IMG/VR virus record: IMGVR_UViG_3300028569_002824
Coordinates: 60,474 to 124,473 of that record
DNA length: 64,000 nt
Reading direction: 5' to 3' (one strand)
DNA from: a virus
Shown piece after piece: positions 17,649-64,000 of this stretch. The notes beneath the pieces are model-generated. The model did no database searches. It was not told the DNA's origin and saw only the letters and a program-made list of their open reading frames with translations. Both the position numbers and the translations under genes were made by a program. Positions within the stretch are counted from its first letter, which is position 1, and each line of letters opens with the position of its first letter.

Positions 17649-18380
17649 TTAGATTTGGGTAACAGGAATGTCGTTTATTGTTGCCAATAATTCAGCACAC
17701 GGTCTTTTATACATAAATGAAGGAAGTACCTTACTATTAGGCTTAAGAGCTGAATGTGGAAATTTTTGATCAATTTTTGTCATGTCGTCTAAGATCTGAG
17801 TTATCTCAGAATCAGATTCGTATAAATTACTCAAGCATTCATGGACGTTAAAGTATTTCCAGCGAACGTCAGCAGTAAAAGTCTTAATGACTTCTGTCTT
17901 CCACTTTTCTATTAAAGCAAACGCAGGTTGTGTGCATACCAAAAACCAGCTTGGAGCTATTCTGTTTCCAGCTATTGGATTTATACTCTTTGTAGAAAAC
18001 CAATAACTAAAAAACTTATTGGAGTCATCTACTAAAGAATTTATAAAATTCTCAAGTGGAAACATTGGATACACACTTGCGTCAACCCAAACTCCGCCAA
18101 ATTTAGACAACAACAGTAACCGCAACAAATCAGACTGACCAGAGCCAATCGGTCGCTCTCGAGCAGAGCATTTCAGTATATCAAAAAATTCAGGAACATG
18201 ATCTCTGATAGTGTTCCTGTTTAATACTCGGACCGACCATGTATCTCCATTGAACGCTTTCCAGCGATCAATACAAAGCTTGTTTAATGGCGGAACACTT
18301 TGATCATACTCTCCTTGATCCCAATACATCCAGATTATTTTATGAGTTATATTGGTTGTAGTAAATGTTGAGTGGTTCAT
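17649..18380 (-). CDS. capsular polysaccharide synthesis / GT32-like DxD glycosyltransferase
   Basis: IIWMYWDQG, SDLLRLLLLSKFGGVWVDAS. Confidence 0.85.
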   Translation of the reverse strand: MNHSTFTTTNITHKIIWMYWDQGEYDQSVPPLNKLCIDRWKAFNGDTWSVRVLNRNTIRDHVPEFFDILKCSARERPIGSGQSDLLRLLLLSKFGGVWVDASVYPMFPLENFINSLVDDSNKFFSYWFSTKSINPIAGNRIAPSWFLVCTQPAFALIEKWKTEVIKTFTADVRWKYFNVHECLSNLYESDSEITQILDDMTKIDQKFPHSALKPNSKVLPSFMYKRPCAELLATINDIPVTQI

Positions 18381-20428: not shown

Positions 20429-22288
20429 TTAATATGTTTCTGGCTGTAACAGGGTATCAATTAATTTACTTATATTTTCAGCAGGCAATTGCCAAAGATG
20501 ACCAATGCCTCCGTCAATATCCGACGCAGAATATAACGGGTTTATATCCACACACGGATAATTAATACACTTCAATTTAACTGCTTGATCACATTTAGGG
20601 TCGCAACACATAGACAGAAACTTATCAGCAGGCGCAATAATACTGTGTGGTAAGTATGTGCGCTCTTTTGCTTTTATTCTTTTGGTTCGTTTGACTTCCA
20701 TTACTCCAGGAGCTTCGTTGTGGATAACATACTCAAGATATTCTGGGTGGTGTGTAGCCTCTATTAATTTTTCTGCTCCTTTTAAACTGACTATATAACT
20801 CTCTGTTCCATGAAACATCAACCTGTGCTCTGGCTTAACATAGCTGAATCGTTTGTTTAATTGTACTAACTCATATCCACTAAGATTCACTAAGCAATTA
20901 TTTAAAAAATTAGTCAGAGAGGTCATGTCTGCATCATCCTCAGTAATAAGAGTATAAGGAATTTGCTCTTTTACTATTTGTTGCCATATTAGATAGTGAC
21001 TCAAATAACAGCCAACAGCTCCTGGAGCTCCTTTAAAATATAAGTCATACGTCAGTGTTGCTGGTCTGACGTGTAACCCGTATTGTTCACATATTAGCGG
21101 GTCTTTACGGGTATCAATGGCTTCGAACTTTCGAGTTGACGGAATCGACTCAGAAAACAATTTCCATCTATCTTGTTTTTCTGCCAAAGTAACACAGAAT
21201 ACACTGTTTACAACAGGTGCTGCGTCAAACGTTACACGTGTTACGTGTTTATTTTTATTCTCAGAGTTGTATTTAAATCGATTTATTCCTACATTGGGCT
21301 GATGGCAAATTAATCTGTTGTCGTAATTTGTCTTGGCCTTGTCAACAACTCGATACTTGCTGGTCCTTAGCTTGTCGTCATGATTAATATGAGAAACAAA
21401 CAATCTAGCATCACTCCAAATTACCTCTTTAATTCTTGGCTTTGTTTCCACTATTCGCCTAGCCAAATCCAAATCATCAAATCCCCAGCCAGTTAAATCT
21501 TCTCTGTAAAAAACAAAATCGCGTTTGTCACAAAACAACAATCCACTCATTGAGTGGCCAAATCTCCAATCTCCTCTTATAAAAAAACACTCACGAGAGT
21601 CATAAGATGAGCTATTTAAATTATCTAACCAGTCTCCATTTAAACAAAGGTGATCACAGTCTACTTTTAATATTTTATCATTGGTAGCAAAATCGAATGC
21701 TATATTATATGCTTTACCTAAATTAAAGGTAGATTCTCCTTCAACTCTAATCAGTTTAATTTGTCCGCTTTTGATCCATTTTTGTATTTTAGAATTCATC
21801 TCAAGCGGAATTTCTGAACTATAATCAACCAATACAATTTCAGTAATCAGCGAAAGTCCCATCCAAGACTCTAAACATTGAATTAAATGATCTTCTCTAT
21901 CCATGCACGCTACTACCAATGAAATTTGAATGTCAGTTGTTTTAACGTGACTTTTTATTGAAATTAATTGTGCTTGATTTGTGTCGTTTACCCAAGCACG
22001 CAAGCGGGATAATTCACACAGCACTTCCTTGTCAATATCTGTATGTTGACCGTTACTTACATCGTCACACTTACTTAAAATTAAGCTGACCAACTGATGT
22101 TTCTTCATTTGTACAAGAAGCGATCCAACCGAAACAAGAGTCTTTACGTCATTATTAGGAATGGTGCTAATCCAATCTTTTAATTCTGTTAAATTGTGTT
22201 GTCTGTTCTTAATTTGTACAGAAACTGTCTCACTCATTTCTTTTGCGATTTGGCTTGCATTAACGTTTGTTGATATTTCTGCTGTCAT
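20429..22288 (-). CDS. GT2/GT7-like plus GT25 fusion glycosyltransferase
   Basis: ACMDR, VDYSS, KVDCD, GWGFDD; then GAVGCYLSH and ITEDDA. Confidence 0.8.
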   Translation of the reverse strand: MTAEISTNVNASQIAKEMSETVSVQIKNRQHNLTELKDWISTIPNNDVKTLVSVGSLLVQMKKHQLVSLILSKCDDVSNGQHTDIDKEVLCELSRLRAWVNDTNQAQLISIKSHVKTTDIQISLVVACMDREDHLIQCLESWMGLSLITEIVLVDYSSEIPLEMNSKIQKWIKSGQIKLIRVEGESTFNLGKAYNIAFDFATNDKILKVDCDHLCLNGDWLDNLNSSSYDSRECFFIRGDWRFGHSMSGLLFCDKRDFVFYREDLTGWGFDDLDLARRIVETKPRIKEVIWSDARLFVSHINHDDKLRTSKYRVVDKAKTNYDNRLICHQPNVGINRFKYNSENKNKHVTRVTFDAAPVVNSVFCVTLAEKQDRWKLFSESIPSTRKFEAIDTRKDPLICEQYGLHVRPATLTYDLYFKGAPGAVGCYLSHYLIWQQIVKEQIPYTLITEDDADMTSLTNFLNNCLVNLSGYELVQLNKRFSYVKPEHRLMFHGTESYIVSLKGAEKLIEATHHPEYLEYVIHNEAPGVMEVKRTKRIKAKERTYLPHSIIAPADKFLSMCCDPKCDQAVKLKCINYPCVDINPLYSASDIDGGIGHLWQLPAENISKLIDTLLQPETY

Positions 22289-22295
22289 ATACCTT

Positions 22296-22324
22296 ATATT
22301 AAGAATAGTATATTGCTAAATCAA
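22296..22324 (-). promoter_or_regulatory. sigma70-like promoter of the minus-strand glycan operon
   Basis: TTGATT-17-TAATAT, 7 nt before ATG. Confidence 0.6.
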
Positions 22325-22345
22325 CACATCAAACAGAACGTAGTC

Positions 22346-22373
22346 TTGAATTTTTTATAAATTACATTAAGAT
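22346..22373 (+). promoter_or_regulatory. sigma70-like promoter of clpC
   Basis: TTGAAT-16-TAAGAT, 6 nt before ATG. Confidence 0.55.
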
Positions 22374-22379
22374 TAAATT

Positions 22380-24908
22380 ATGTCCCAAAACTTTACTCCT
22401 CGAGCACAACAATCGTTAGCGTTAGCTAGAAAAGAAGCAGAAGCTCTTAATCATAATTATATCGGTACTGAACACTTGTTACTCGGTCTCCTCAAGCTCG
22501 GTCAAGGATTAGCGCTAAAAGTTCTGCAATCAATGGGTGTAGGCTCAGAAGAGGTGTATGAGCTGATAAAAGAAAATACAGAGCCGAGTGAAAATCAACC
22601 GAAACAATTAAAAGGAGAAAACATTCCGGTTACTCCGCGAGTTAAAAAGGTGCTAAGCATCGCTCAAAAGGAATCAGTAAAAATGGGACATACTTACATT
22701 GGTACGGAACATTTGCTGCTAGGATTACTCAGGGAAGAGGAAGGAATTGCTGCAAAAATTTTACTTCAGGATTTTGGCATAAGTTTCGAAGAAGTTAAAG
22801 AGCAAATTTTAAGAGAGATTGATCCAAATTATCAGAACAGCGAACCCGTTTTAGCAGGAGGAGAAGAAACTTCACAAAAACATCAATCAAAAAAAACTCC
22901 AGCATTAAAAGCGTATGGAACAGACTTAACTGAGCTAGCCGAGAAGGGAGAGTTGGACCCTGTTATAGGAAGAGAAAGTGAGATTGAGAGGACGATACAA
23001 ATTTTGTGCAGAAGAACTAAAAATAATCCAGTTTTAATAGGTGAAGCGGGCGTTGGAAAGACATCAATAGCCGAGGGTCTTGCTATTGAAATAGTATCAA
23101 AAAACGTACCTGATCTATTATTAAACAAGAAAATAATAACATTAGATTTAACCTCATTAGTTGCGGGCACTATATACAGAGGACAGTTCGAAGAAAGAAT
23201 CAAGTCTGTAATGAACGAGGTAAAGAAAAACAAAAACATAATTTTGTTTATAGACGAAATACACATGATGGTCGGGGCAGGTTCTGCTTCCGGCTCTATG
23301 GATGCATCTAATATATTTAAACCAGCTTTAAGTAGAGGGGAATTACAATTGATTGGAGCAACGACGTTAGCGGAATACAGAAAATATATAGAAAAGGATG
23401 CTGCTCTTGAGCGAAGATTTCAGCAAGTTAAAGTAGAAGCTCCAAGTATATCTCAAACAACACAAATCTTAAAAGGAATTAGAGCAAAATATGAACAACA
23501 CCATAATGCTAAATTTACAGATGAATCACTAGAAGCAGCTTCTGTGTTATCAGAGAGATATATTACCGACAGGTTTCTTCCAGATAAAGCAATTGATCTA
23601 ATCGATGAGGCAGGATCAAGAGCCAGAATAACATCAAGAGTGCGCCCTCCAAATCTTACCGACATTGAAAATTTAATTAAAGAGATGAGCGAGAAGAAGC
23701 AACAAGCCATCAAAAACCAAGAATTTGAACAAGCAGCTTTATTTAGAGATAAAGAGAGGAAAGCAAATACTGAGATGCAGAATTCTATAGCTCAGTGGAA
23801 TAAAAACAACAAAGAAACGGTCGTTGTTGTAGACAAAGATGACATTGCACAAGTGATTGCTAAATGGACAGGAATACCATTGTCTAGAATAGATCAAACT
23901 GAAGCAGACAAAATACTAAACATGGAAGCGGAGTTAAGCAAACGGATTATTGGTCAACCTGATGCAATCGATGTTGTGTGTAAGGCAATTCGAAGAGCTA
24001 GAGCTGATTTAAAAGATCCAAAAAGACCAATAGGTAGCTTTTTGTTTCTTGGTCCAACGGGTGTTGGAAAAACGTTTTTAGCTAAAGGTATTGCAGAAAT
24101 AATTTTTGGAACAAAAGATTCAATTATACAAATAGATATGAGTGAATATATGGAAAAATTCTCAGTATCAAGATTGATCGGATCTCCTCCCGGTTATATT
24201 GGATATGAAGATGGTGGACAACTTACTGAAAAGGTCCGCAGAAAACCGTATTCCGTGGTTTTATTTGATGAAGTTGAAAAGGCCCATCCAGAGGCATTGA
24301 ATTTGTTGTTACAAATATTCGAGGAAGGAACGATTACAGACTCGATTGGTAGAAAGATAGACTTCAGAAATACGGTTATAATATTAACATCTAATGTTGG
24401 AGCAACAATGGCCGTTAAACAAACTAGTCTCGGATTTGGAATAAAGGAAGAACCATCAGGCAGCTATGATATAATGAAAGAAAAGACAATGGTAGAAGCA
24501 AAATCGTTTTTTAAACCCGAATTATTAAATCGAATTGATAGTGTTGTTGTTTTTAAGTCTCTCAGAAAAGAGGACTTAAAAAAAGTAGTTGAGTTAGAAT
24601 CAGATCAACTCATCATGCGCCTCAAAGAGAATAAAGATATAGAATTAGTTTTAGATGAATCTGCAAAGGAGTTTGTTGCAGAAAAGGGATTTAGCACAGA
24701 ATATGGAGCACGTCCAATTAGACGCGCTGTTGAAACTTATTTGGAAGATCCTATAGCAGAAGAATTACTTAAAGAACACATAAAAAGTAAAGACAAAGTT
24801 ACAGCAAGCTGTGTTGACGGTAAAATAGTTTTTATTAAAAAAGATGTTTTTGTTGATCTGCCTGCAAACAAACGCAACCCTTCAAAAAAATTAAAAAATC
24901 CAAAATAA
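22380..24908 (+). CDS. clpC: ATP-dependent Clp protease ATP-binding subunit ClpC
   Basis: Two Clp-N repeats (GTEHLLLGL), Walker A GEAGVGKT and GPTGVGKT, UVR-like middle domain, LGF ClpP-docking loop, GARPIRR. Confidence 0.95.
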   Translation: MSQNFTPRAQQSLALARKEAEALNHNYIGTEHLLLGLLKLGQGLALKVLQSMGVGSEEVYELIKENTEPSENQPKQLKGENIPVTPRVKKVLSIAQKESVKMGHTYIGTEHLLLGLLREEEGIAAKILLQDFGISFEEVKEQILREIDPNYQNSEPVLAGGEETSQKHQSKKTPALKAYGTDLTELAEKGELDPVIGRESEIERTIQILCRRTKNNPVLIGEAGVGKTSIAEGLAIEIVSKNVPDLLLNKKIITLDLTSLVAGTIYRGQFEERIKSVMNEVKKNKNIILFIDEIHMMVGAGSASGSMDASNIFKPALSRGELQLIGATTLAEYRKYIEKDAALERRFQQVKVEAPSISQTTQILKGIRAKYEQHHNAKFTDESLEAASVLSERYITDRFLPDKAIDLIDEAGSRARITSRVRPPNLTDIENLIKEMSEKKQQAIKNQEFEQAALFRDKERKANTEMQNSIAQWNKNNKETVVVVDKDDIAQVIAKWTGIPLSRIDQTEADKILNMEAELSKRIIGQPDAIDVVCKAIRRARADLKDPKRPIGSFLFLGPTGVGKTFLAKGIAEIIFGTKDSIIQIDMSEYMEKFSVSRLIGSPPGYIGYEDGGQLTEKVRRKPYSVVLFDEVEKAHPEALNLLLQIFEEGTITDSIGRKIDFRNTVIILTSNVGATMAVKQTSLGFGIKEEPSGSYDIMKEKTMVEAKSFFKPELLNRIDSVVVFKSLRKEDLKKVVELESDQLIMRLKENKDIELVLDESAKEFVAEKGFSTEYGARPIRRAVETYLEDPIAEELLKEHIKSKDKVTASCVDGKIVFIKKDVFVDLPANKRNPSKKLKNPK

Positions 24909-32546: not shown

Positions 32547-33509
32547 CTAGTAAACAATTCTTGAGGATATGATTTGGGTAGTAATATCTTCGTGAATATA
32601 ATCTTGTGCAGATTGTACTCTGCGATTAACTTCATCCTGTGCTGATTTGAATGACTGATTACTGTTATCAGCTTTAGTAATGTTCGCTGTTGTATGATAC
32701 CACTCGAGCCAACCTTTTGGGTCTTCACTGTTATTAGCTTTAGTAATGGTTGATGTTGTATGTGGACGTATATTACTACGAACAACTTGTATAACTTCTT
32801 TCTCTACATCACTAATGGAAGATAGCTGATTCTTAATTTTTAAAAATTCAGACTTTAACGCTTCTTGATTTATTTGAGGAGATTTAACAGTAGTAGTTTT
32901 TGAATATACTGTTTGGGGTTTGCTTTTATTGGGCTGCGGCGCAGCAGCAACGCGACTAGCAGCTTTGTTATTTAGTGTTGTTTCTACGGAGTTTAATTTT
33001 TGTTTAGCAATGGGCTTTTTAATATCAGGAACGAACGAAGATCGTATAGCGTTCGGATTGGGACAAAACCCTGCCTTAAAATTGCTGTCGTCTGCTGACG
33101 CAATTGGTTGTTTTAATGCAGGGGAGGAAGCTGTTAAAGAGTGTATGATGTTAACTGCTTTTTGAACTAAAGCATCAAGAGCCAGCTGTGCAATTGTATT
33201 TACAGCCTTTTTAATTGGAGATTCTTCTGAATACTTCTCTTCAATCTTTGTTGGTTTAAACGGGGAAAGGGCAACTACAACAGGCTTGCCTCTCTGTGGA
33301 AACATACTTGACGTATCCTTATTAATCATTCGTTGAAGCTCAGCTTCCTCTTGTTTTTTTACTATTAGCGCTTGTTTACGCTTCTCTGCTCTATAGGAAG
33401 AATACTTAGATATTGCGCAATATCCACCCACGTGTAGTAGAATTACTACAACGAGTGCTTGTTTAAATGAAATTGCTTTTCTAAATCTTTGGTGAAACAT
33501 AACACTCAT
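32547..33509 (-). CDS. membrane-anchored low-complexity protein
   Basis: N-terminal TM ALVVVILLHVGGY; K/A/S/P-rich body. Confidence 0.65.
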   Translation of the reverse strand: MSVMFHQRFRKAISFKQALVVVILLHVGGYCAISKYSSYRAEKRKQALIVKKQEEAELQRMINKDTSSMFPQRGKPVVVALSPFKPTKIEEKYSEESPIKKAVNTIAQLALDALVQKAVNIIHSLTASSPALKQPIASADDSNFKAGFCPNPNAIRSSFVPDIKKPIAKQKLNSVETTLNNKAASRVAAAPQPNKSKPQTVYSKTTTVKSPQINQEALKSEFLKIKNQLSSISDVEKEVIQVVRSNIRPHTTSTITKANNSEDPKGWLEWYHTTANITKADNSNQSFKSAQDEVNRRVQSAQDYIHEDITTQIISSRIVY

Positions 33510-33512
33510 TCT

Positions 33513-34124
33513 TTACATGAACTTAAGAACTTGTCCTACTTTAAGTTGTTTTGGGTCTTTTATTCCATTAATTTTCATTAGACGGGCAGAAACTAGATGA
33601 TACTTTTTTGCAATACCGTAAACTGTATCTCCGCTCTTAACTACATAATTTTTTACTAGTTTGTTTTGAACTTGCTTTGGAGGATGAGTTTCTACCTTTG
33701 GAACTGAAGGAGCTACTTGAACTTGCTTTGGAGGATGAGTTTCTACCTTTGGAACTGAAGGAGCTACTTGAACTTGCTTTGGAAAAAGATTTGATGGTGC
33801 TGCTATTTTAGTATGTGAACTGAGCGCTGCTGTCTGAGGTAAGGAGGGTTCTGCAGGCTTAGTATCCATTGGAACATCGCCTCGGTTTTTACTGTTTGTT
33901 TGAACCACTTCTTGCTTATTTTTATCTTCAGCGGACTTTTGAGCTGCATTAGAAGAAGAAAACCCAAGCACGCAGGCCGCACATACAACATGTGCAGCAA
34001 TGATTGCTCCTGTAATAACAAGAGTACGAGGTTCTTTGATTTTTGGTTCAGTTCTTTGTTTCTTCATATCAAACATATGTTCTTCTTCAGGAGTTACGTC
34101 AATGTGGTAGTGTTTATCATTCAT
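33513..34124 (-). CDS. membrane-anchored LysM peptidoglycan-binding protein
   Basis: TM, Pro-rich linker, C-terminal YVVKSGDTVYGIAKKY...LKVGQVLK. Confidence 0.88.
   Translation of the reverse strand: MNDKHYHIDVTPEEEHMFDMKKQRTEPKIKEPRTLVITGAIIAAHVVCAACVLGFSSSNAAQKSAEDKNKQEVVQTNSKNRGDVPMDTKPAEPSLPQTAALSSHTKIAAPSNLFPKQVQVAPSVPKVETHPPKQVQVAPSVPKVETHPPKQVQNKLVKNYVVKSGDTVYGIAKKYHLVSARLMKINGIKDPKQLKVGQVLKFM
33666..33783. repeat. 51-bp tandem repeat (about 2.3 copies) encoding PKQVQVAPSVPKVETHP
   Basis: Identical units at 33666 and 33717, partial at 33768. Confidence 0.9.
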
Positions 34125-34411
34125 AAATTAGAATTAACGTTGGTTTTGGAGGACACATCAACTGTTAATTTGGATTTTTGTTTAGATGTCAAAATACGTC
34201 GCTCGGGGAAATTGCATTCCAGTGCGTCAGAATAAGGTCCGATTTTCCAAAATTTTTGTGAGGGAGTACACGGAAAGCACTTAGAAATCAAAAAATCTTT
34301 ATTGCTACACACAAATAAAAATCCCCAAAAAGAAGCTACTAACAATACATGTAGAATTACCGAAACACACGAGGTTATAAGCGAAGGGAGTGGTTGTTCT
34401 TTTCTAATCAT
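34121..34411 (-). CDS. small membrane protein
   Basis: TM VSVILHVLLVASFW; ATGA overlap with the LysM gene. Confidence 0.55.
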   Translation of the reverse strand: MIRKEQPLPSLITSCVSVILHVLLVASFWGFLFVCSNKDFLISKCFPCTPSQKFWKIGPYSDALECNFPERRILTSKQKSKLTVDVSSKTNVNSNL

Positions 34412-34429
34412 ATGTTTGGGCGAATCGTT

Positions 34430-35440
34430 TCAATTGTCTTTATAATTTCTGTTAAGGATTTTAAATCCCAGAGGTCTTCTGGAATGTGTGAATCGTGGAT
34501 AGGAAGAAGGTCGGATCACAATTCCTTCCGCCTGTTCCTTAGAAACATACGTTTGCATATCAGCTAATTCCTGAAGTTTATTGATAGCAGTTTGCACATC
34601 ACAACCAATAAAAGAGCATTCAGAAATAAACGGGACAACGTGACATTTAAGTTCTACATTACAGAACCCTTTCATCTCTTGATAATTCATATATTCTCCA
34701 GAAGATTTTTTTATTTGAAACACAATGAACTCGTGATTCTCTAGTCGTAGAGGATTCTTCTGAATGCTAGGACCAACCAACTCACCTTGAAGTATTCCAC
34801 TAAACCCACACGATAAATTAAGCTTCTTAGCAACTTTCCAGAATAAGCTATTTTCTGTGTCTTTCTTTGACAAATTTCGAGAACAAACTTTAACAACAGT
34901 TCCACTTTCAACAACAACAGTCATAGAACTACCGTCAAGCTTTTGTGTAATCGTAACTGACGGAGATTTAATTACCTCTTCCACAATATCGAGATTAGAA
35001 AGACCGTTGTCCTCATCCGTTTTGGAGATCAAGTCTGTTGGAAAATCTCCAATATTTTCTCCAGCAAGATTAGCAGGAAGATCTTTTATGTATTTTTTAA
35101 TACCCAATAATTCAGTTACATCTGTACTCACCTCATACAAACTAAACGAATCTGGAAATTCAGATAGAGGAATGACTAAACCTGCTGAGTATTCTCCTCT
35201 GAGATTTATCATTTTTAGTCTAACTGGTTTATCTGGAGAAGATTTGTTTATTAAAAATTGTGCCCAAGGAGCATTGTGAGGAAGCAATGTATCAATTACG
35301 ATAAACACTACTTTGTCGCCCTCTTTATGTAATCCAGATTGTACAACTGATTGCCAGCCCATTACATGAGCTAATTCTAGTCGATCCGCATTTGAATGAG
35401 GCCGAATCGATTTGATTTTTTCAATAGAGGCTAGTTTCAT
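34430..35440 (-). CDS. RNA ligase, Rnl2/DRB0094-type, with N-terminal OB/tRNA-binding-like domain
   Basis: HSNADRLELA, motif I TQKLDGSS, VCSRN, QGELVG, EGIVIR, FKILN. Confidence 0.88.
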   Translation of the reverse strand: MKLASIEKIKSIRPHSNADRLELAHVMGWQSVVQSGLHKEGDKVVFIVIDTLLPHNAPWAQFLINKSSPDKPVRLKMINLRGEYSAGLVIPLSEFPDSFSLYEVSTDVTELLGIKKYIKDLPANLAGENIGDFPTDLISKTDEDNGLSNLDIVEEVIKSPSVTITQKLDGSSMTVVVESGTVVKVCSRNLSKKDTENSLFWKVAKKLNLSCGFSGILQGELVGPSIQKNPLRLENHEFIVFQIKKSSGEYMNYQEMKGFCNVELKCHVVPFISECSFIGCDVQTAINKLQELADMQTYVSKEQAEGIVIRPSSYPRFTHSRRPLGFKILNRNYKDN

Positions 35441-35474
35441 ATTATAATAAGCGTTGAATGTAACAAATTAACGA

Positions 35475-35500
35475 AACAGCCTGAGAATTCTCAGGCTGTT
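35475..35500. terminator. perfect 26-bp palindrome (hairpin, probable terminator)
   Basis: AACAGCCTGAGAATTCTCAGGCTGTT, 10 nt after the stop of 35511..36350. Confidence 0.55.
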
Positions 35501-35510
35501 AACATCGGTC

Positions 35511-36350
35511 TTACTGTTGTATATTACGAGCAAGTCTAAAGCCAAGCCCTGGAGTTTTAATATCAGGAGTGTCGTGGAAACTCAGCTCGTTAAATTGATT
35601 TGAAAACCATTTATGAGTAGAATCAAAGTAACCTCCTGAACGATAGGAACGAAGCCGATTCCCTTTTAAATCCCAACACCATTCAGTTACGTTTCCAGAC
35701 ATGTCATAAATGCCTAGTTCATTTGCTAGCTTCGTTCCAACTTCATGTGCTGTGTCGTTACTGTTACCTTTATGCCAACAAACGTCATTTATTTCGTTGC
35801 TGCCGGAATATATAAATCCCTTTGACTTAACTCCTCCTCTAGCTGCCCATTCCCACTCAGCTTCAGTAGGAAGACGGTACCCATTAGCATTGACGTTTTG
35901 ATTTACAACAAAAGACCCACTATTTCCAAAGTCGAGTCTTTTGTACACTTTTCCCTGTACTTCATACACCGGAAGCAGTCCTTCCATTTCACTCTTTGAG
36001 TTACACCACTCGACAGCATCATACCAACTTATATGAGTGACTGGATATTTGTCTCCTAGTCCCTGTCCTACGTTTGATAGGCGATATCCATTTTTTACTG
36101 CCCATTGCATTACCGCTTTCCACTCACCCCAAGTCACTTCGTGTTTACTAATTTCAAATGATTTTACTAATTTTTCTGAAACTTTTGACTCTGCTGGCAA
36201 CTCTCCCTCCTTTACTTCGATTAATTCCGAAACATACACATCACGCAAAATGTCAGTGTTTGGTCTCATCTCTGGTGAAGACTCGACACCGTAACTTAAC
36301 GTCAAACAACTAACTGTAATAAATGCAATTAAATAATTTATTGTTTTCAT
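35511..36350 (-). CDS. secreted FGE-sulfatase (SUMF1-like, C-type lectin fold) domain protein
   Basis: Signal peptide; HEVT, YRLPTEAEWEWAARGG, GIYDMSGNVTEWCWD, GFRLAR. Confidence 0.88.
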   Translation of the reverse strand: MKTINYLIAFITVSCLTLSYGVESSPEMRPNTDILRDVYVSELIEVKEGELPAESKVSEKLVKSFEISKHEVTWGEWKAVMQWAVKNGYRLSNVGQGLGDKYPVTHISWYDAVEWCNSKSEMEGLLPVYEVQGKVYKRLDFGNSGSFVVNQNVNANGYRLPTEAEWEWAARGGVKSKGFIYSGSNEINDVCWHKGNSNDTAHEVGTKLANELGIYDMSGNVTEWCWDLKGNRLRSYRSGGYFDSTHKWFSNQFNELSFHDTPDIKTPGLGFRLARNIQQ

Positions 36351-59074: not shown

Positions 59075-59081
59075 GTGAAGT

Positions 59082-59089
59082 TATTTATA
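59082..59089 (-). promoter_or_regulatory. T4-late-type promoter TATAAATA
   Basis: Exact T4 gp55 consensus 7 nt before ATG; also at 29683..29690. Confidence 0.55.
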
Positions 59090-59116
59090 GTAGGAATGTG
59101 CATTTTAATGTACAGG

Positions 59117-61474: not shown

Positions 61475-61479
61475 AAATA

Positions 61480-61527
61480 CTATTTAACAAACTCAACAAG
61501 TTTTAATAATTGTTGATCTTTATTCAT
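61480..61527 (-). pseudogene. leader-only stub MNKDQQLLKLVEFVK closing the EGIF array
   Basis: ATG directly after the TAA of 61528..61893; stops after 15 codons. Confidence 0.6.
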
Positions 61528-61893
61528 TTAAAATATTCCTTCTAGTTCTGGAAGCTTTTTAATAAGCTCATCAAAGTTTGACTCCAGTGTTATCCGCATG
61601 TCCGATTTGTTAATATAATTGCTGATTGATGATCTCTCAATTGCATTTGTAAGGGTTGTTAATACAAGTTCTTTAAACTTGTCTAAATTTATTTTACCGT
61701 CTTCCTCTGTAATATCATAAATGATAAGAATAGGTCCTTTATCGGTTGTTTTAACAATTTCGTGACGAAAGTTAAATCTTTCTATAAATTTTTTGACGAG
61801 AGTCATGTCAAGAATATTTTCAAGCCAAATTTGAGCTTGCTTAGGAGCTTTTATTATTGAAGGATAGCTTATTTCTAGTTTAAACGTTTTCAT
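61528..61893 (-). CDS. EGIF-array protein, unknown domain
   Basis: Ends KKLPELEGIF. Confidence 0.75.
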   Translation of the reverse strand: MKTFKLEISYPSIIKAPKQAQIWLENILDMTLVKKFIERFNFRHEIVKTTDKGPILIIYDITEEDGKINLDKFKELVLTTLTNAIERSSISNYINKSDMRITLESNFDELIKKLPELEGIF

Positions 61894-62393
61894 TAAAATA
61901 TATCTTTCAATTCTGGTAACTTGTCTTCCATCCGACGTACTTTTCGTCTCATACTTTGGTATTTACTTATATCTTCTTCTGAAAAGCCATTCATTTTTAT
62001 TGGTCCTACGACTCTTAAATCGTCTGGAAGTTGTTCCAATCTTTTAATTCCACTATGTTCTAAATTTAAATATCCACCCACTTTTAAATTTGTCGGAAGT
62101 GATTTAAGTTTTTCACAACGATGCAAATTCGCGTTTCCTATTACTGTTAAATTATCAGGAAGAGATTCAAGATTTGCGCAATTGCTGAGTATTAAGTTTC
62201 TTCCAACTAACTTCAATGTAGAAGGAAGTGATTTAAGATCCAAAGTTCCAGGTAAATATAAATGTGATGTACTTCCATTTTTAATGTACTTTTCTATTGC
62301 TGAATCTGTAGTTTCTCCAGGATAGTGACAATTTTCTTGCTTGTTTGACACTTCTTCATAAAGAAGTTCTAATTGCTTCTGATCCGTATTCAT
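61893..62393 (-). CDS. EGIF-array protein with LRR-like LPxNLxV repeats
   Basis: MNTDQKQLELLYEE; LPSTL, LPDNLTV, LPTNLKV, LPDDLRV; ends KLPELKDIF. Confidence 0.8.
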   Translation of the reverse strand: MNTDQKQLELLYEEVSNKQENCHYPGETTDSAIEKYIKNGSTSHLYLPGTLDLKSLPSTLKLVGRNLILSNCANLESLPDNLTVIGNANLHRCEKLKSLPTNLKVGGYLNLEHSGIKRLEQLPDDLRVVGPIKMNGFSEEDISKYQSMRRKVRRMEDKLPELKDIF

Positions 62394-63020
62394 TTAAAAT
62401 ATTCCTTCTATTTCTGGAAGTTTCTTCCTCAGCCCTTGAAGCTTTTCTTCTTCTTTTCTCCACTCATAGGCTTTACGGACCCATTCTATTTCATTTTCAA
62501 TTTCTTTAATACTGGTTTTGTCGGTAAAAGCAAACTTGATATGGTGTTTGATGTATTTTTCAAAAGCTTCCGTGAGTTTAGAAACATCTTCTGCTGAAAC
62601 GGTTTCAACAGCGCCTGCTTGAAGTGGATCGAAAAACGTCAAACAAATTTTACTTTTTGAATTTGAGACAATCCTTTGAAATGTGAGCATCGTGTTTTTT
62701 GCCATTATTCTTACGACATACCCCTCATAAAGAGAATTAAAGTATTTTGTTATTTCTGGACCTAGGTTCAACTTTGCTAGCGTTTCATCAGGAATGTCAT
62801 GATGCATTTTCGTTAGCTTTATCCAAAATGCGGTATAAAGCGAAGTTGGTAAAAAATGAAAGCGCTTTTTAGTGTTTTCTGTTGATGTAATTGTCGAAGC
62901 AATTGTCGTTGCAAATCTCTGTGAAAGGTCTTTAGCAAGCAACTCTTCTTCTTTAGTAAAATTGAAGTCATTGACCGTCGACTCACCAATCGGTTTTAAT
63001 TTCTTTTGATCTTTGTTCAT
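62394..63020 (-). CDS. EGIF-array protein, unknown domain
   Basis: MNKDQKKL; ends KKLPEIEGIF. Confidence 0.75.
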   Translation of the reverse strand: MNKDQKKLKPIGESTVNDFNFTKEEELLAKDLSQRFATTIASTITSTENTKKRFHFLPTSLYTAFWIKLTKMHHDIPDETLAKLNLGPEITKYFNSLYEGYVVRIMAKNTMLTFQRIVSNSKSKICLTFFDPLQAGAVETVSAEDVSKLTEAFEKYIKHHIKFAFTDKTSIKEIENEIEWVRKAYEWRKEEEKLQGLRKKLPEIEGIF

Positions 63021-63592
63021 TAAAATATTCCCTCTATTTCCGGAAGTTTTTTCTTTAGTTCTTCATACTTCTTGAGCCTCTCATTATGCTCTTTGAATTC
63101 TTCGTTAGAAAAATTGGAAGAATGAACCTTGCCTTTTACATCAACATAATGCTTTATGTCTTTTAGTTGCATGTCGGTTGCAGTCATAAATAGATCTTCT
63201 CCAATTTTTAAATTTTTAGGTAAAGCATTGATATAGGTATAACCAATGATTAAGTTCTCTCCAACTGTTAAGTTGTCTGGAAGGGAGGTTAATGACGAGC
63301 TTCTTAAGTCTAATCTTGCTGACACCTTCAAGTTTTTTGGTAAAGTTTTAAACTTTGAGCCTTCTGCGTCCATAGTTCCGGTTACGGTCATGTTATCTGG
63401 AAAGCGTTTAATTTTTGCATATCTCATTTGCAAATTTCCTTTGACTATAAAATTATCTGGAAAAGAAACTCCGTTTGCCCTTGTTAAATCTAAGTCTCCT
63501 ATGTTTCCAAAAGTGATATATTTGTCAATTATTGTTTGAGTTTCAACTGTGCTATAAGCCTCTTCAAGCAACGTTTGATCTACAGTTTTCAT
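63020..63592 (-). CDS. EGIF-array protein with LRR-like LPxNLxV repeats
   Basis: MKTVDQTLLEEAY; FPDNFIV, FPDNMTV, LPKNLKV, LPDNLTV, LPKNLKI; ends KKLPEIEGIF. Confidence 0.8.
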   Translation of the reverse strand: MKTVDQTLLEEAYSTVETQTIIDKYITFGNIGDLDLTRANGVSFPDNFIVKGNLQMRYAKIKRFPDNMTVTGTMDAEGSKFKTLPKNLKVSARLDLRSSSLTSLPDNLTVGENLIIGYTYINALPKNLKIGEDLFMTATDMQLKDIKHYVDVKGKVHSSNFSNEEFKEHNERLKKYEELKKKLPEIEGIF

Positions 63593-64000
63593 TTAAAATA
63601 TTCCCTCTATTTCCGGTAGCTTAGCTTCCATCTTCCTAACCTTTGGAGAGTTTTCATCTATATCAGCATTTGCAATAATTTTTTGGCTAGCATAATATTC
63701 CATTCCATCCATCCAATAGTCAAGATTTTCAATTGCTCTGTCTAATTCCAACAAATAATCTTCTACAATATTTGTTGGAATATCAATAATTTTGAATCTT
63801 AGAGAATTTTGATCTATTTTAGTGTCAAATGCATATTTTTTTGTTGGATTATAATATTGCTTCATTAGAGTTTCTGCGTGCCTTGTAAGTCTCCAAGCAA
63901 TGCCATCTACGAGTTCTGGTGTTGTTTTGTTTCCATGCATGTCTGTTGAATTCATCTGTACTATAATATCAGCAACTGCACTGGTTTCTTCTCCTTTCAT
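63593..64000 (-). CDS. EGIF-array protein, possibly 5'-truncated by the window edge
   Basis: Ends AKLPEIEGIF; the ORF reaches the window boundary. Confidence 0.7.
   Translation of the reverse strand: MKGEETSAVADIIVQMNSTDMHGNKTTPELVDGIAWRLTRHAETLMKQYYNPTKKYAFDTKIDQNSLRFKIIDIPTNIVEDYLLELDRAIENLDYWMDGMEYYASQKIIANADIDENSPKVRKMEAKLPEIEGIF

Follow-up and report, generated by a model that had tools for sequence, protein, structure and literature searches.

A five-gene array with a recurrent C-terminal tail

The window (the whole 64,000-nt stretch of DNA that we analysed) ends in five consecutive genes on the minus strand, arranged back-to-back from 61528 to 64000. A sequence-only reading of this DNA had pointed out that the products of all five end in KLPE[IL]x[GD]IF followed by a stop, and these endings are real. 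A degenerate pattern for the tail gave 5 matches in the window and 0 in 100 dinucleotide shuffles, and the whole 124,473-bp record contains none beyond these five copies. The features of the array are listed below.

63593..64000, minus strand: cassette 1, 135 aa, module family F5, ends AKLPEIEGIF, without leader
63593..63622, minus strand: junction 1, 27 tail-coding nt plus stop, TAAATG
63020..63592, minus strand: cassette 2, 190 aa, module family F2, LRR-like solenoid, leader MKTVDQTLLEEAY, tail KKLPEIEGIF
63020..63049, minus strand: junction 2, 27 tail-coding nt plus stop, TAATG; foreign-metagenome joints or loose ends at 63022 and 63046
62394..63020, minus strand: cassette 3, 208 aa, module family F4, degenerate leader MNKDQKKL, tail KKLPEIEGIF
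62394..62423, minus strand: junction 3, 27 tail-coding nt plus stop, TAAATG; joints or loose ends at 62389-62393
61893..62393, minus strand: cassette 4, 166 aa, module family F2 (LRR-like), leader-like MNTDQKQLELLYEE, variant tail DKLPELKDIF
61893..61922, minus strand: junction 4, 27 tail-coding nt plus stop, TAATG
61528..61893, minus strand: cassette 5, 121 aa, module family F9, without leader (MKTFKLEISY), tail KKLPELEGIF
61528..61557, minus strand: junction 5, 27 tail-coding nt plus stop, TAAATG, then the stub; joints at 61557-61560
61480..61527, minus strand: leader remnant (stub), MNKDQQLLKLVEFVK-stop, 3' part conserved in locus L059
61064..61474, minus strand: predicted lipoprotein, 136 aa, conserved downstream boundary of the array

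The array does reach the window edge, as had been stated, but this edge is also the end of the contig and the 135-aa gene is whole. We regard this gene as complete because its ATG forms the last three bases of both window and contig and because a cluster of proteins of the identical length, P0025, exists. Three window genes start M-x-x-(x)-DQ, as claimed, but among five complete genes rather than four. Cassette 1 is homologous to the last module of the polyproteins P0014, P0018 and P0004 described below, and a low-confidence model of a fused homolog gives it an alpha/beta fold. The dead stub proposed to follow the last gene is present; its 3' end carries a TAAATA hexamer, 12 nt upstream of the ATG that opens the next gene.

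Structure prediction and alignment agreed with the suggestion that two of the five proteins have LRR-like middles. The AF2 model of the 190-aa protein (pLDDT 92.3; about 65 over the last 10 residues) consists of an N-terminal helix, an LRR-like solenoid and a C-terminal helix plus tail, and the 166-aa protein aligns in the same family. VIA-align matched the 190-aa model best to 8z5u_0 (Z 15.8, rmsd 3.2 over 154 residues) and to many LRR proteins at Z 9-11, where values below about 13 may mean a common arrangement only. Foldseek against the PDB returned a best E of 0.02 for the LRR-like model and nothing at E <= 0.001, and no window protein matched the Pfam LRR family. A two-copy complex prediction for the 190-aa protein scored 0.00, which gives no answer in either direction. 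As had been proposed, the other three proteins show no obvious similarity to each other: where their profiles match one another or the LRR family, the match is anchored in the tail only.

Database searches placed none of these proteins in a named family. For the five window proteins and the polyproteins P0004 and P0021, no match in Pfam or PHROGs rose above noise at the thresholds used. Neither blastn of the array nor tblastn of the 1215-aa polyprotein P0002 found a match in 50,697 phage records, and a search of viral contigs for relatives of the 135-aa protein's locus found none. In the ESM Atlas, P0021 had no usable feature match and structure rows of TM < 0.4, with one exception, a 183-aa viral cluster that matches the LRR-like part.

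Conservation of the tail and its junctions

We collected relatives of the tail and retained matches to the pattern at 30 of 64 metagenome loci and on 2 viral contigs. A profile search of 1.84 billion representatives returned 37 proteins. The other 34 metagenome loci were dropped as chance matches, and the 7 of them that we inspected encode oxidoreductase, dehydrogenase and other bacterial proteins. Loci L011-L013 (single matches within RNR-like and other ORFs) and proteins P0062-P0067 were likewise left out as chance, as was P0071, an ankyrin/NACHT protein with KYPELK repeats. The strings LPELEGIF and LLEEAY were mentioned nowhere in the main texts of the literature searched. The tail-bearing proteins thus form a rare, unnamed, lineage-restricted family.

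Across 102 distinct instances the tail is strongly conserved (K in 98, L in 97, P and E in 102 each, L/I in 99, G in 97, I in 90 and F in 99), and these instances use 4 Pro codons and 6 Leu codons. Within the window the copies already vary in Leu (CTA/CTT/TTA) and Pro (CCG/CCA) codons. Selection at the protein level, which had been read from synonymous changes in the five copies, is therefore clear: K, L, P, E, G, I and F are fixed despite differing Pro and Leu codons. The conserved element spans about 15-25 residues and consists of an amphipathic helix followed by K-L-P-E-[LI]-x-G-I-F. The position after it is a stop in 63 of the 102 instances and Glu in 34.

The N-terminal leader did not hold up as the other half of a constant frame. 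It occurs on only 24 of 93 distinct stand-alone tail proteins and also on about 20 genes without a tail. In the 190-aa protein the leader lies inside the N-terminal helix (residues 4-27, pLDDT 85-89).

The window junctions are built as the sequence-only reading described: TAAATG in three and TAATG in two, an invariant ATA TTT TAA in all five, and E-G codons resembling a Shine-Dalgarno sequence in four (GAGGGA twice, GAAGGA twice; AAAGAT in the fifth). Among the split junctions, the next ATG abuts or overlaps the stop in 22 of 63. Split and fused tails alike favour the codons GGA (73-76%, relative to 50% genome-wide) and ATA (70-74%, relative to 36%). These features are consistent with translational coupling at split junctions, although they do not prove it. 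Stop read-through or recoding was rejected, since two junctions are TAATG and the next gene is hence in another frame.

Fusion and shuffling of modules among relatives

The relatives revealed a form of the family that the window does not contain. In the window the modules are separate genes; in relatives they are also fused in frame into polyproteins of up to 1215 aa, with Glu (GAA) in place of the stop (TAA). The relatives carry 2-8 modules per ORF in varying order. A polypeptide can hold up to 8 tails, and after each internal one come Glu and a polar linker. The full tail is also retained where it ends the protein, on the final module of each polyprotein and on every stand-alone gene. Cutting 142 proteins at their tails yielded 250 modules, which fall into 28 families unrelated by BLAST, some of them LRR-like solenoids, and families F5, F1, F12, F6 and F7 occur both stand-alone and fused. 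The tail element is thus found on at least 28 BLAST-unrelated module families, either as the C-terminus of a separate gene or as an in-frame polyprotein joint.

Each cassette is a self-contained module, with LRR-like, alpha/beta and, in relatives, SH3-like folds. The F3, F15 and F5 modules of P0018 were all modelled as beta-alpha-beta-beta-alpha-beta plus a C-terminal helix, at low confidence (pLDDT 66, pTM 0.45), and we used this AF2 model solely for the order of secondary structures and for the low confidence of its linkers and tails. The tail does not dock confidently on its own module in either model (pLDDT about 65 in the 190-aa protein and 57-69 in P0018), and the linker that follows it in P0018 is predicted to be disordered.

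Cassette order differs among loci. The window reads F5-F2-F4-F2-F9, whereas L024 reads F4'-F9-F5-F22-F2. Cassettes common to loci are 84-95% identical in nucleotide sequence, yet they stand in another order or beside other neighbours. The lipoprotein gene that bounds the array is 87% identical at the nucleotide level in L028 and L059 and is preceded there by other cassettes; L028 has different cassettes between F4 and this gene. Joints in contigs from other lake metagenomes (61559>63022, 61560>62391 and 63046>62389) fall within tail-coding DNA. Permuted order, together with block edges and contig joints in the approximately 30 tail-coding nucleotides, supports the earlier proposal of a swappable library that recombines at its junctions. 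We conclude that the tail-coding sequence of about 30-50 nt is where relatives gain, lose, permute and fuse cassettes. RNA run X24 yielded only diverged contigs (85-95% alike) covering parts of the region, and its library may hold DNA.

Whatever the mechanism, the tail defines a family without a name that is confined to one lineage, comprises at least 28 module types and has operon and polyprotein forms that interconvert. It represents exon-shuffling-like phage evolution: one coding 30-mer is peptide and recombination site and may also couple translation.

Candidate functions and known systems

The source of the record is a deep-branching, uncultured T4-like lake phage. Its gp43 is 32% identical to the protein of Pelagibacter phage HTVC008M, and sheath, tube and TerL genes are present. 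The hexamer TAA[AG]TA lies upstream of 27 of its 174 genes, sheath and tube included, with its start 10-14 nt from the ATG. We take it for a late-type promoter motif, from its presence before these two genes and from what is known of T4. In relatives, 6 of 11 array or first-gene starts have the hexamer at a distance of 11-15 nt, and the other 5 lack it. The three tail-carrying viral records hold no head gene (major capsid protein, scaffold, prohead protease or portal). Pfam searches for gp21 (PF03420) and gp23 on these records (G000-G002, fragments of 26-58%) found no match, and the controls were likewise unmatched. The record encodes clamp-like, GroEL, GroES-like and DnaK-like proteins and a ClpC-like ATPase with an LGF loop and a UVR-like motif. 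The arrays are embedded in a large glycan toolkit.

By analogy with T4, the tail may be a C-terminal signal for head targeting and processing, a reading that we find plausible but hold somewhat short of probable. The tail element would do at the C-terminus what the capsid-targeting sequence does in T4: by attaching to the core or shell of the prohead during assembly, it would bring in a set of binders or effectors that varies with the population. The prohead protease would then cut after Glu (that of LPE, and that of IFE in fused forms), and the freed modules would be ejected along with the DNA. Where the array is split, translation of the next cassette would also be coupled through the E-G-I-F codons (GAAGGAATATTT) and the TAAATG or TAATG that follows. 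A broader version, in which the cleavable tag (helix-KLPELEGIF) would be a universal head-loading signal whose DNA doubles as recombination and ribosome-binding site, appears to us rather doubtful. Any module could then be inserted or relocated, or joined into a polyprotein through one TAA/GAA change, and each population would have its own ejected library.

Several observations, all circumstantial, bear on the head-targeting reading, and the same holds for the docking, head-packaging and anti-defence roles that had been suggested from the sequence. The cited excerpts describe T4 gp21 as cleaving after L/I-X-E, the T4 internal proteins as having only a 10-residue targeting sequence in common, and Alt and gp21 as processed at the C-terminus too (PMC9026906, PMC3012670). 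Candidate L/I-X-E sites in our family are LPE (102 of 102 tail instances), IFE where modules are fused and, in the leader, LLE; the T4 gp23 propeptide contains LLE, LPE and IFE. The leader MKTVDQTLLEEAY resembles the start of T4 IPII/IPIII, MKTYQEFIAEA, without statistical support. We counted in favour of head targeting that the tail is not confidently docked on its own module in the models, that a linker predicted to be disordered follows it, and that the late-type promoter motif lies upstream of several arrays. However, L/I-X-E is so short that it arises by chance in proteins rich in Glu and Leu, and it does not account for K, G and F being so strictly conserved. The position of the leader in a confidently predicted helix is as compatible with a structural function as with that of a propeptide. 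The modules are not basic (median pI 5-9), unlike the T4 internal proteins; this, the 5 of 11 starts without the hexamer, and the missing head genes count against the reading.

We weighed four other explanations. The tail might be a docking peptide for a hub outside the head, such as the sliding clamp, a ClpC-like unfoldase, another phage chaperone or a host protein, with the modules as intracellular effectors recruited to the hub or degraded through it. Candidate hubs are encoded in the record, and the tail-carrying G002 has a 73%-identical ClpC-like gene, although G001, a 26% fragment, shows none. The C-termini of the phage DNA polymerase (TDLFELFGDN) and of a 110-aa protein beside the clamp gene (NLDYLYKN) show L-x-x-hydrophobic-aromatic, as does the tail (E-L-E-G-I-F); the polymerase tail lacks the invariant K, P and G, so one pocket would leave the strict conservation unexplained. 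Up to 8 tails per polypeptide would be easier to accommodate on a lattice than on a trimeric ring or hexamer, and the late-type promoter motif suits virion proteins better than takeover factors. We consider this explanation unlikely. The chance is slim that the tail instead anchors modules to the virion exterior (capsid, neck or fibres), where LRR-like and SH3-like modules would be variable adhesins or decoration and polyproteins multivalent chains. Folds of the protein- or ligand-binding type, hypervariability at the population level, late-type promoter motifs and the surrounding glycan toolkit fit such a role, and at L022 a polyprotein adjoins large structural-looking genes, one with a ConA-like lectin domain. 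No structural neighbour gene is conserved across loci, however, and the conserved Glu and flexible linker after internal tails point to processing. Known decoration proteins bind via folded domains of about 80-130 residues, unlike a 9-residue peptide, and short peptides are typical of interior cargo loading.

A dedicated protease outside the head, from phage or host, might cut cytoplasmic polyproteins into effectors at the tail, which split arrays would keep only through TAA/GAA interconversion and the roles of its DNA in recombination and ribosome binding. Such an enzyme would account for the 2-8 joints of the polyproteins and for the Glu and the polar linker, predicted to be disordered, that come after each joint, and the over-use of GGA and ATA in split and fused tails alike also suits it. 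It is nonetheless very unlikely: the full tail is under peptide-level selection on last modules and stand-alone genes, where nothing follows it, and we saw no protease gene adjoining any array. Finally, there may be no common partner. Helix and tail would then be a structural cap or self-association element of one ancestral domain, kept uniform by gene conversion in tandem arrays with ordinary paralog turnover. The similar models of F3, F15 and F5 (at their pLDDT of 66) mean that several families may be one diverged fold, and the biased codon choice in the tail's 3' half points to homogenisation at the DNA level. One tail nevertheless occurs on clearly different folds (LRR-like solenoid and alpha/beta), profile comparisons align the tail region only, the tail has low model confidence and is unpacked on its module, and the free drift of Pro and Leu codons argues against simple gene conversion. 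We give this explanation little credence.

A role in loading and processing would make the tail the first natural, C-terminal plug-in tag for phage heads and would reveal how T4-like phages assemble and reshuffle a library of co-injected proteins, with a bearing on the phage-host arms race and on the engineering of cargo-carrying capsids. Resemblances of the tail to sortase LPXTG, the ClpX IGF-loop and the SSB tip found no support and were set aside, as was mimicry of the GroES mobile loop (the loop of the phage's own GroES-like protein is GGIIIPD).

We compared the tail with known systems. In encapsulin cargo-loading peptides and the P22 scaffolding C-terminus, a short C-terminal peptide or helix-turn-helix directs unrelated cargo to the inner face of an HK97-fold shell. 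Neither resembles the tail in sequence, and encapsulin cargo genes adjoin the shell gene, whereas the array is known without one. T4 IPI, IPII, IPIII and Alt offer another parallel. In the cited excerpts these are unrelated cargo proteins with only a short terminal peptide in common and an L/I-X-E site within it, their gene sets vary among related phages, and Alt is processed at both termini (PMC9026906, PMC3012670). Here, by contrast, the element is C-terminal, longer, far more conserved and placed after a helix, its packaging and cleavage are putative, and it also serves as in-frame polyprotein joint and recombination point.

Two further systems resemble the shuffling of the modules. PeSLs are short conserved sequences at cassette borders in the hyperplastic regions of T4-like phages, linked in the cited excerpts to genes without known function being inserted, deleted and replaced (Arbiol et al. 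2010, PMC2839356; Comeau et al. 2014, PMC4122927). As described there, they are non-coding promoter-terminator motifs between genes, whereas our element is coding and selected as a peptide. The TAAATG and TAATG junctions leave no intergenic DNA, and we met no intergenic early promoter with stem-loop terminator of the PeSL type. Polyvalent proteins of phages and conjugative elements carry 2-15 domains in variable architectures, and the excerpts cited suggest delivery and processing of these proteins (Iyer et al. 2017, PMC5512222). Relatives of our array likewise have several domains per polypeptide in variable order. The domains of polyvalent proteins are described as recognisable, with enzymatic or anti-defence functions and often a peptidase embedded among them (PMC5512222), whereas the five window proteins, P0004 and P0021 gave no Pfam or PHROG match at the thresholds used. 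In the present family, one peptide forms all the joints, and the modules exist as separate genes too.

An array of tail-bearing genes at the contig end

Five minus-strand genes fill positions 61528-64000 of the window. Each product ends in a variant of one peptide, KLPE[IL]x[GD]IF (the tail), behind a module assigned to a BLAST family (F-number). Listed from position 64000 downward, the genes are:

135 aa, minus strand, family F5, C-terminus AKLPEIEGIF
190 aa, minus strand, family F2, C-terminus KKLPEIEGIF
208 aa, minus strand, family F4, C-terminus KKLPEIEGIF
166 aa, minus strand, family F2, C-terminus DKLPELKDIF
121 aa, minus strand, family F9, C-terminus KKLPELEGIF

The last base of the window is also the last base of the contig. 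The ATG of the 135-aa gene occupies the final three bases, and an equal-length database cluster (P0025, 135 aa) exists, so we count this gene as complete. The sequence-only reading found an M-x-x-(x)-DQ start (the leader) in three of four complete genes. The three genes do have one, but with the 135-aa gene complete the ratio is three of five. Its account of the junctions held up: ATA TTT TAA is the same in all of them, the E-G codons are GAGGGA or GAAGGA in four, the Leu and Pro codons vary among the window copies, and a dead 15-codon stub, MNKDQQLLKLVEFVK, lies past the last array gene. The junctions read TAAATG three times and TAATG twice. A degenerate tail-plus-stop pattern matched five times in the window and never in 100 shuffles, and the 124,473-bp record (G000) holds no further copy of the motif outside the array.

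The tail family and its modules

The tail is under peptide-level selection, is attached to many unrelated cargoes, and occurs in interconverting split (separate-gene) and fused (in-frame polyprotein) forms, with rearrangement confined to its junctions. Pattern scans of viral contigs recovered two more tail-bearing contigs (L004 and L005); three other viral matches were rejected as chance. One metagenome scan gave 64 loci, of which 30 (26 contigs) were retained on the basis that the motif closes an ORF or repeats inside one. The other 34 were lone matches in unrelated ORFs or lacked an ORF-level motif, and the seven inspected were ordinary bacterial enzymes. A profile built on the C-terminal 40 residues (A1) matched 67 proteins at E <= 10 (8000 candidates scored) and 37 at E <= 0.001 among 1.84 billion cluster representatives; one of the 37, P0071, was a false positive. 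No Pfam domains are on record for the matched proteins, a tblastn search of polyprotein P0002 against 50,697 phage records found no match, and the motif strings were not found in the literature text searched.

The strongest profile matches were ORFs of 600-1215 aa built from modules of ~80-200 aa, each ending in KLPELxG[IV]F, after which come Glu and a few polar residues. Among 102 distinct nucleotide instances of the tail, P and E are invariant, and the other positions are nearly so (K 98, L 97, L/I 99, G 97, I 90, F 99). The motif extends upstream, with L/M at position -3 in 99/102 and a hydrophobic or aromatic residue at -6 in 95/102, which carries it back into a predicted amphipathic helix. 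A stop codon comes next in 63 instances, 59 of them TAA, and a Glu codon in 34, 31 of them GAA; the next ATG abuts or overlaps the stop in 22 of the 63 split junctions. Leu is written with six codons, and Pro with four at genome-like proportions. GGA (73-76% in tails vs 50% genome-wide) and ATA (70-74% vs 36%) are in excess in split and fused forms alike, which points to an extra DNA-level constraint or homogenisation. In the database protein P0076 a leader-like SDQKLLEEKY directly follows the tail in frame, so tail and leader can act as one junction unit.

Cutting 142 proteins at their tails gave 250 modules, which, after the last 12 residues were trimmed, formed 28 BLAST families (E <= 1e-4, >= 50% coverage). 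Five families (F1, F5, F6, F7 and F12) are seen as stand-alone genes and also fused in frame. Profile-profile alignment of the window-gene families was confined to the tail region (probability 68-85%). In the model of the 190-aa protein (pLDDT 92.3), a solenoid lies between an N-terminal helix (residues 4-27) that takes in the leader and a C-terminal helix (163-182); the last ten residues score ~65. VIA-align matched this model almost exclusively to LRR proteins (Z 9-11; top 8z5u_0, Z 15.8), and Foldseek matches were weak. The fused homolog P0018 gave a poor model (pLDDT 66), in which three modules run beta-alpha-beta-beta-alpha-beta and then close with a C-terminal helix; tails score 57-69 and the linker below 50. 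The leader had been proposed as a constant frame of the array proteins, a view that does not stand: 24 of 93 distinct stand-alone tail proteins have one (F2 12/16, F4 5/15, F1 0/20, F9 0/11), as do at most one of 25 fused proteins and ~20 tail-less genes.

Cargo order differs among relatives with block borders at junctions, in line with the swappable library first suggested. The window order F5-F2-F4-F2-F9 becomes F4'-F9-F5-F22-F2 in metagenome locus L024, where the shared cassettes are 95% (F5), 85% (F2) and 84% (F9) identical in nucleotides and the shared blocks stop 8-30 nt past gene borders, within the neighbour's tail or start. The lipoprotein gene downstream of the array is 87% identical in loci L028 and L059, where F26-F21-F23 or F23 precedes it. 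Polyproteins vary by inserted, deleted or permuted whole modules (F3-F15-F5 vs F3-F15-F11-F5; F7-F13-F3-F12-F10-F6 vs F7-F13-F11-F3-F12-F1-F5). In other lake metagenomes, assembled contigs connect 61559 with 63022, 61560 with 62391 and, running backward, 63046 with 62389; any one of these joints may be an artefact of assembly. By eye, two window tails share at most ~17 nt of uninterrupted identity, which would be below typical assembly word size. Loose contig ends cluster at tails (61527-61568, 62389-62393, 63046, 63588). Each of the three viral records carries its array close to or at an end of the contig, as expected of a hypervariable repeat-bearing region.

PeSL-mediated shuffling works alike, but its joints are intergenic, whereas those here are coding. 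Polyvalent proteins are also similar, but the modules here lack recognisable domains.

Possible roles of the tail

The arrays may work in the manner of the T4 capsid-targeting sequence and the variable loci of T4 internal proteins. We tentatively read the tail as a head-targeting and processing signal, which would direct modules to the phage head and be processed there. This reading draws on T4: three accounts (PMC9026906, PMC3012670, PMC5694885) state that gp21 cleaves after L/I-X-E, that a 10-residue targeting sequence is the sole common part of the internal proteins, and that Alt and gp21 are also C-terminally trimmed. The tail holds an invariant LPE, and its fused form adds IFE. Further support comes from the T4 gp23 propeptide, which has LLE, LPE and IFE, from the similarity of the leader to MKTYQEFIAEA of IPII/IPIII, and from a hexamer, TAA[AG]TA, found before sheath and tube genes and several array starts. 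It is position-locked, beginning 10-14 nt upstream of the ATG in 27 of 174 called G000 genes, including those for the sheath and one tube protein, several sulfotransferase/glycosyltransferase genes and leader-bearing genes. Two examples lie in the window:

61475-61486, TAA[AG]TA
59075-59090, TAA[AG]TA

Among 11 array or first-gene starts in relatives, four have the hexamer 11-14 nt upstream and two at 15 nt; three of the remaining five directly follow an upstream gene. It may be a late promoter, like that of T4 (TATAAATA); as the -10 element of one it would leave a 5' UTR of only a few nt.

Against a head role, L/I-X-E is too permissive a pattern to account for the invariant K, G and F. The leader sits inside a well-modelled helix, and module pI values are unremarkable. 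No head genes were seen on these incomplete viral fragments; the Pfam searches for gp21 and gp23 found none in the control genomes either and are uninformative. The tail might instead bind another hub, such as the clamp or ClpC, which we regard as unlikely; external decoration of the virion seems somewhat less likely again. Recognition by a non-head protease and a tail that has no common partner are both improbable.

The phage and the genes beside its arrays

G000 is a 58%-complete fragment (34.6% G+C) with genes for TerL, a tail sheath and two tube proteins. The family-B DNA polymerase that it encodes shares only ~32% identity with the enzymes of Pelagibacter phage HTVC008M and cyanomyophages. 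Because of this gene set and polymerase divergence, we classify the source, on predicted proteins, as a deep-branching, uncultured T4-like phage. The sequencing runs in which pieces of the locus turned up are metagenomes of lakes and fresh water. Contigs from two other metagenomes (runs X2 and X5) continue beyond 64000, where the G000 contig breaks exactly; ~37-43 nt of the extension match the tail-coding junction 62389-62431 in reverse orientation and run right up to the start codon of the 135-aa gene. This could be an assembly artefact, a scar left by an inversion, or a divergent array whose first element is what remains of a tail. At L004 1039-1103 two tail-bearing genes converge, tails facing, with 5 nt between their stops, an inverted repeat of tail-coding sequence that could mediate inversions.

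Several genes adjoin the arrays or stand out elsewhere in the genome:

61064-61474, minus strand, 136-aa predicted lipoprotein with a signal peptide ending in Cys; bounds the array downstream and is conserved in L028 and L059
60509-61054, sulfotransferase-like gene adjoining the array
22380-24908, plus strand, ClpC-like ATPase with a double Clp_N repeat, UVR-like motif and LGF loop

A Pfam search gave no match for the lipoprotein. We take its Cys...His...Asp spacing to recall transglutaminase-like cysteine peptidases. Sulfotransferase-like genes also adjoin arrays at L005 11036-12034 and L031 1110-1727, making three independent loci; the window gene alone has a Pfam match, those in L005 and L031 being called by motif. 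The adjacency may be chance, the genome being rich in such genes. In two related metagenome contigs, a 63-aa ORF that is bS21-like by eye (L020 2398-2589, L073 2041-2232) lies beside the arrays along with an ATP-dependent DNA ligase; of the two, only the ligase has Pfam support.

The ClpC-like gene is present at 73% identity in G002, another tail-bearing viral record. GroEL, a GroES-like protein (mobile loop GGIIIPD) and DnaK lie within G000 20545-24434, giving the phage its own chaperone set; these and a clamp-like protein were called from N-terminal sequence. The C-termini of the DNA polymerase (G000 32968-35520; TDLFELFGDN) and of a 110-aa protein adjoining the clamp-like gene (G000 17842-18174; NLDYLYKN), both encoded outside the window, are probable clamp-binding tails of this phage lineage.
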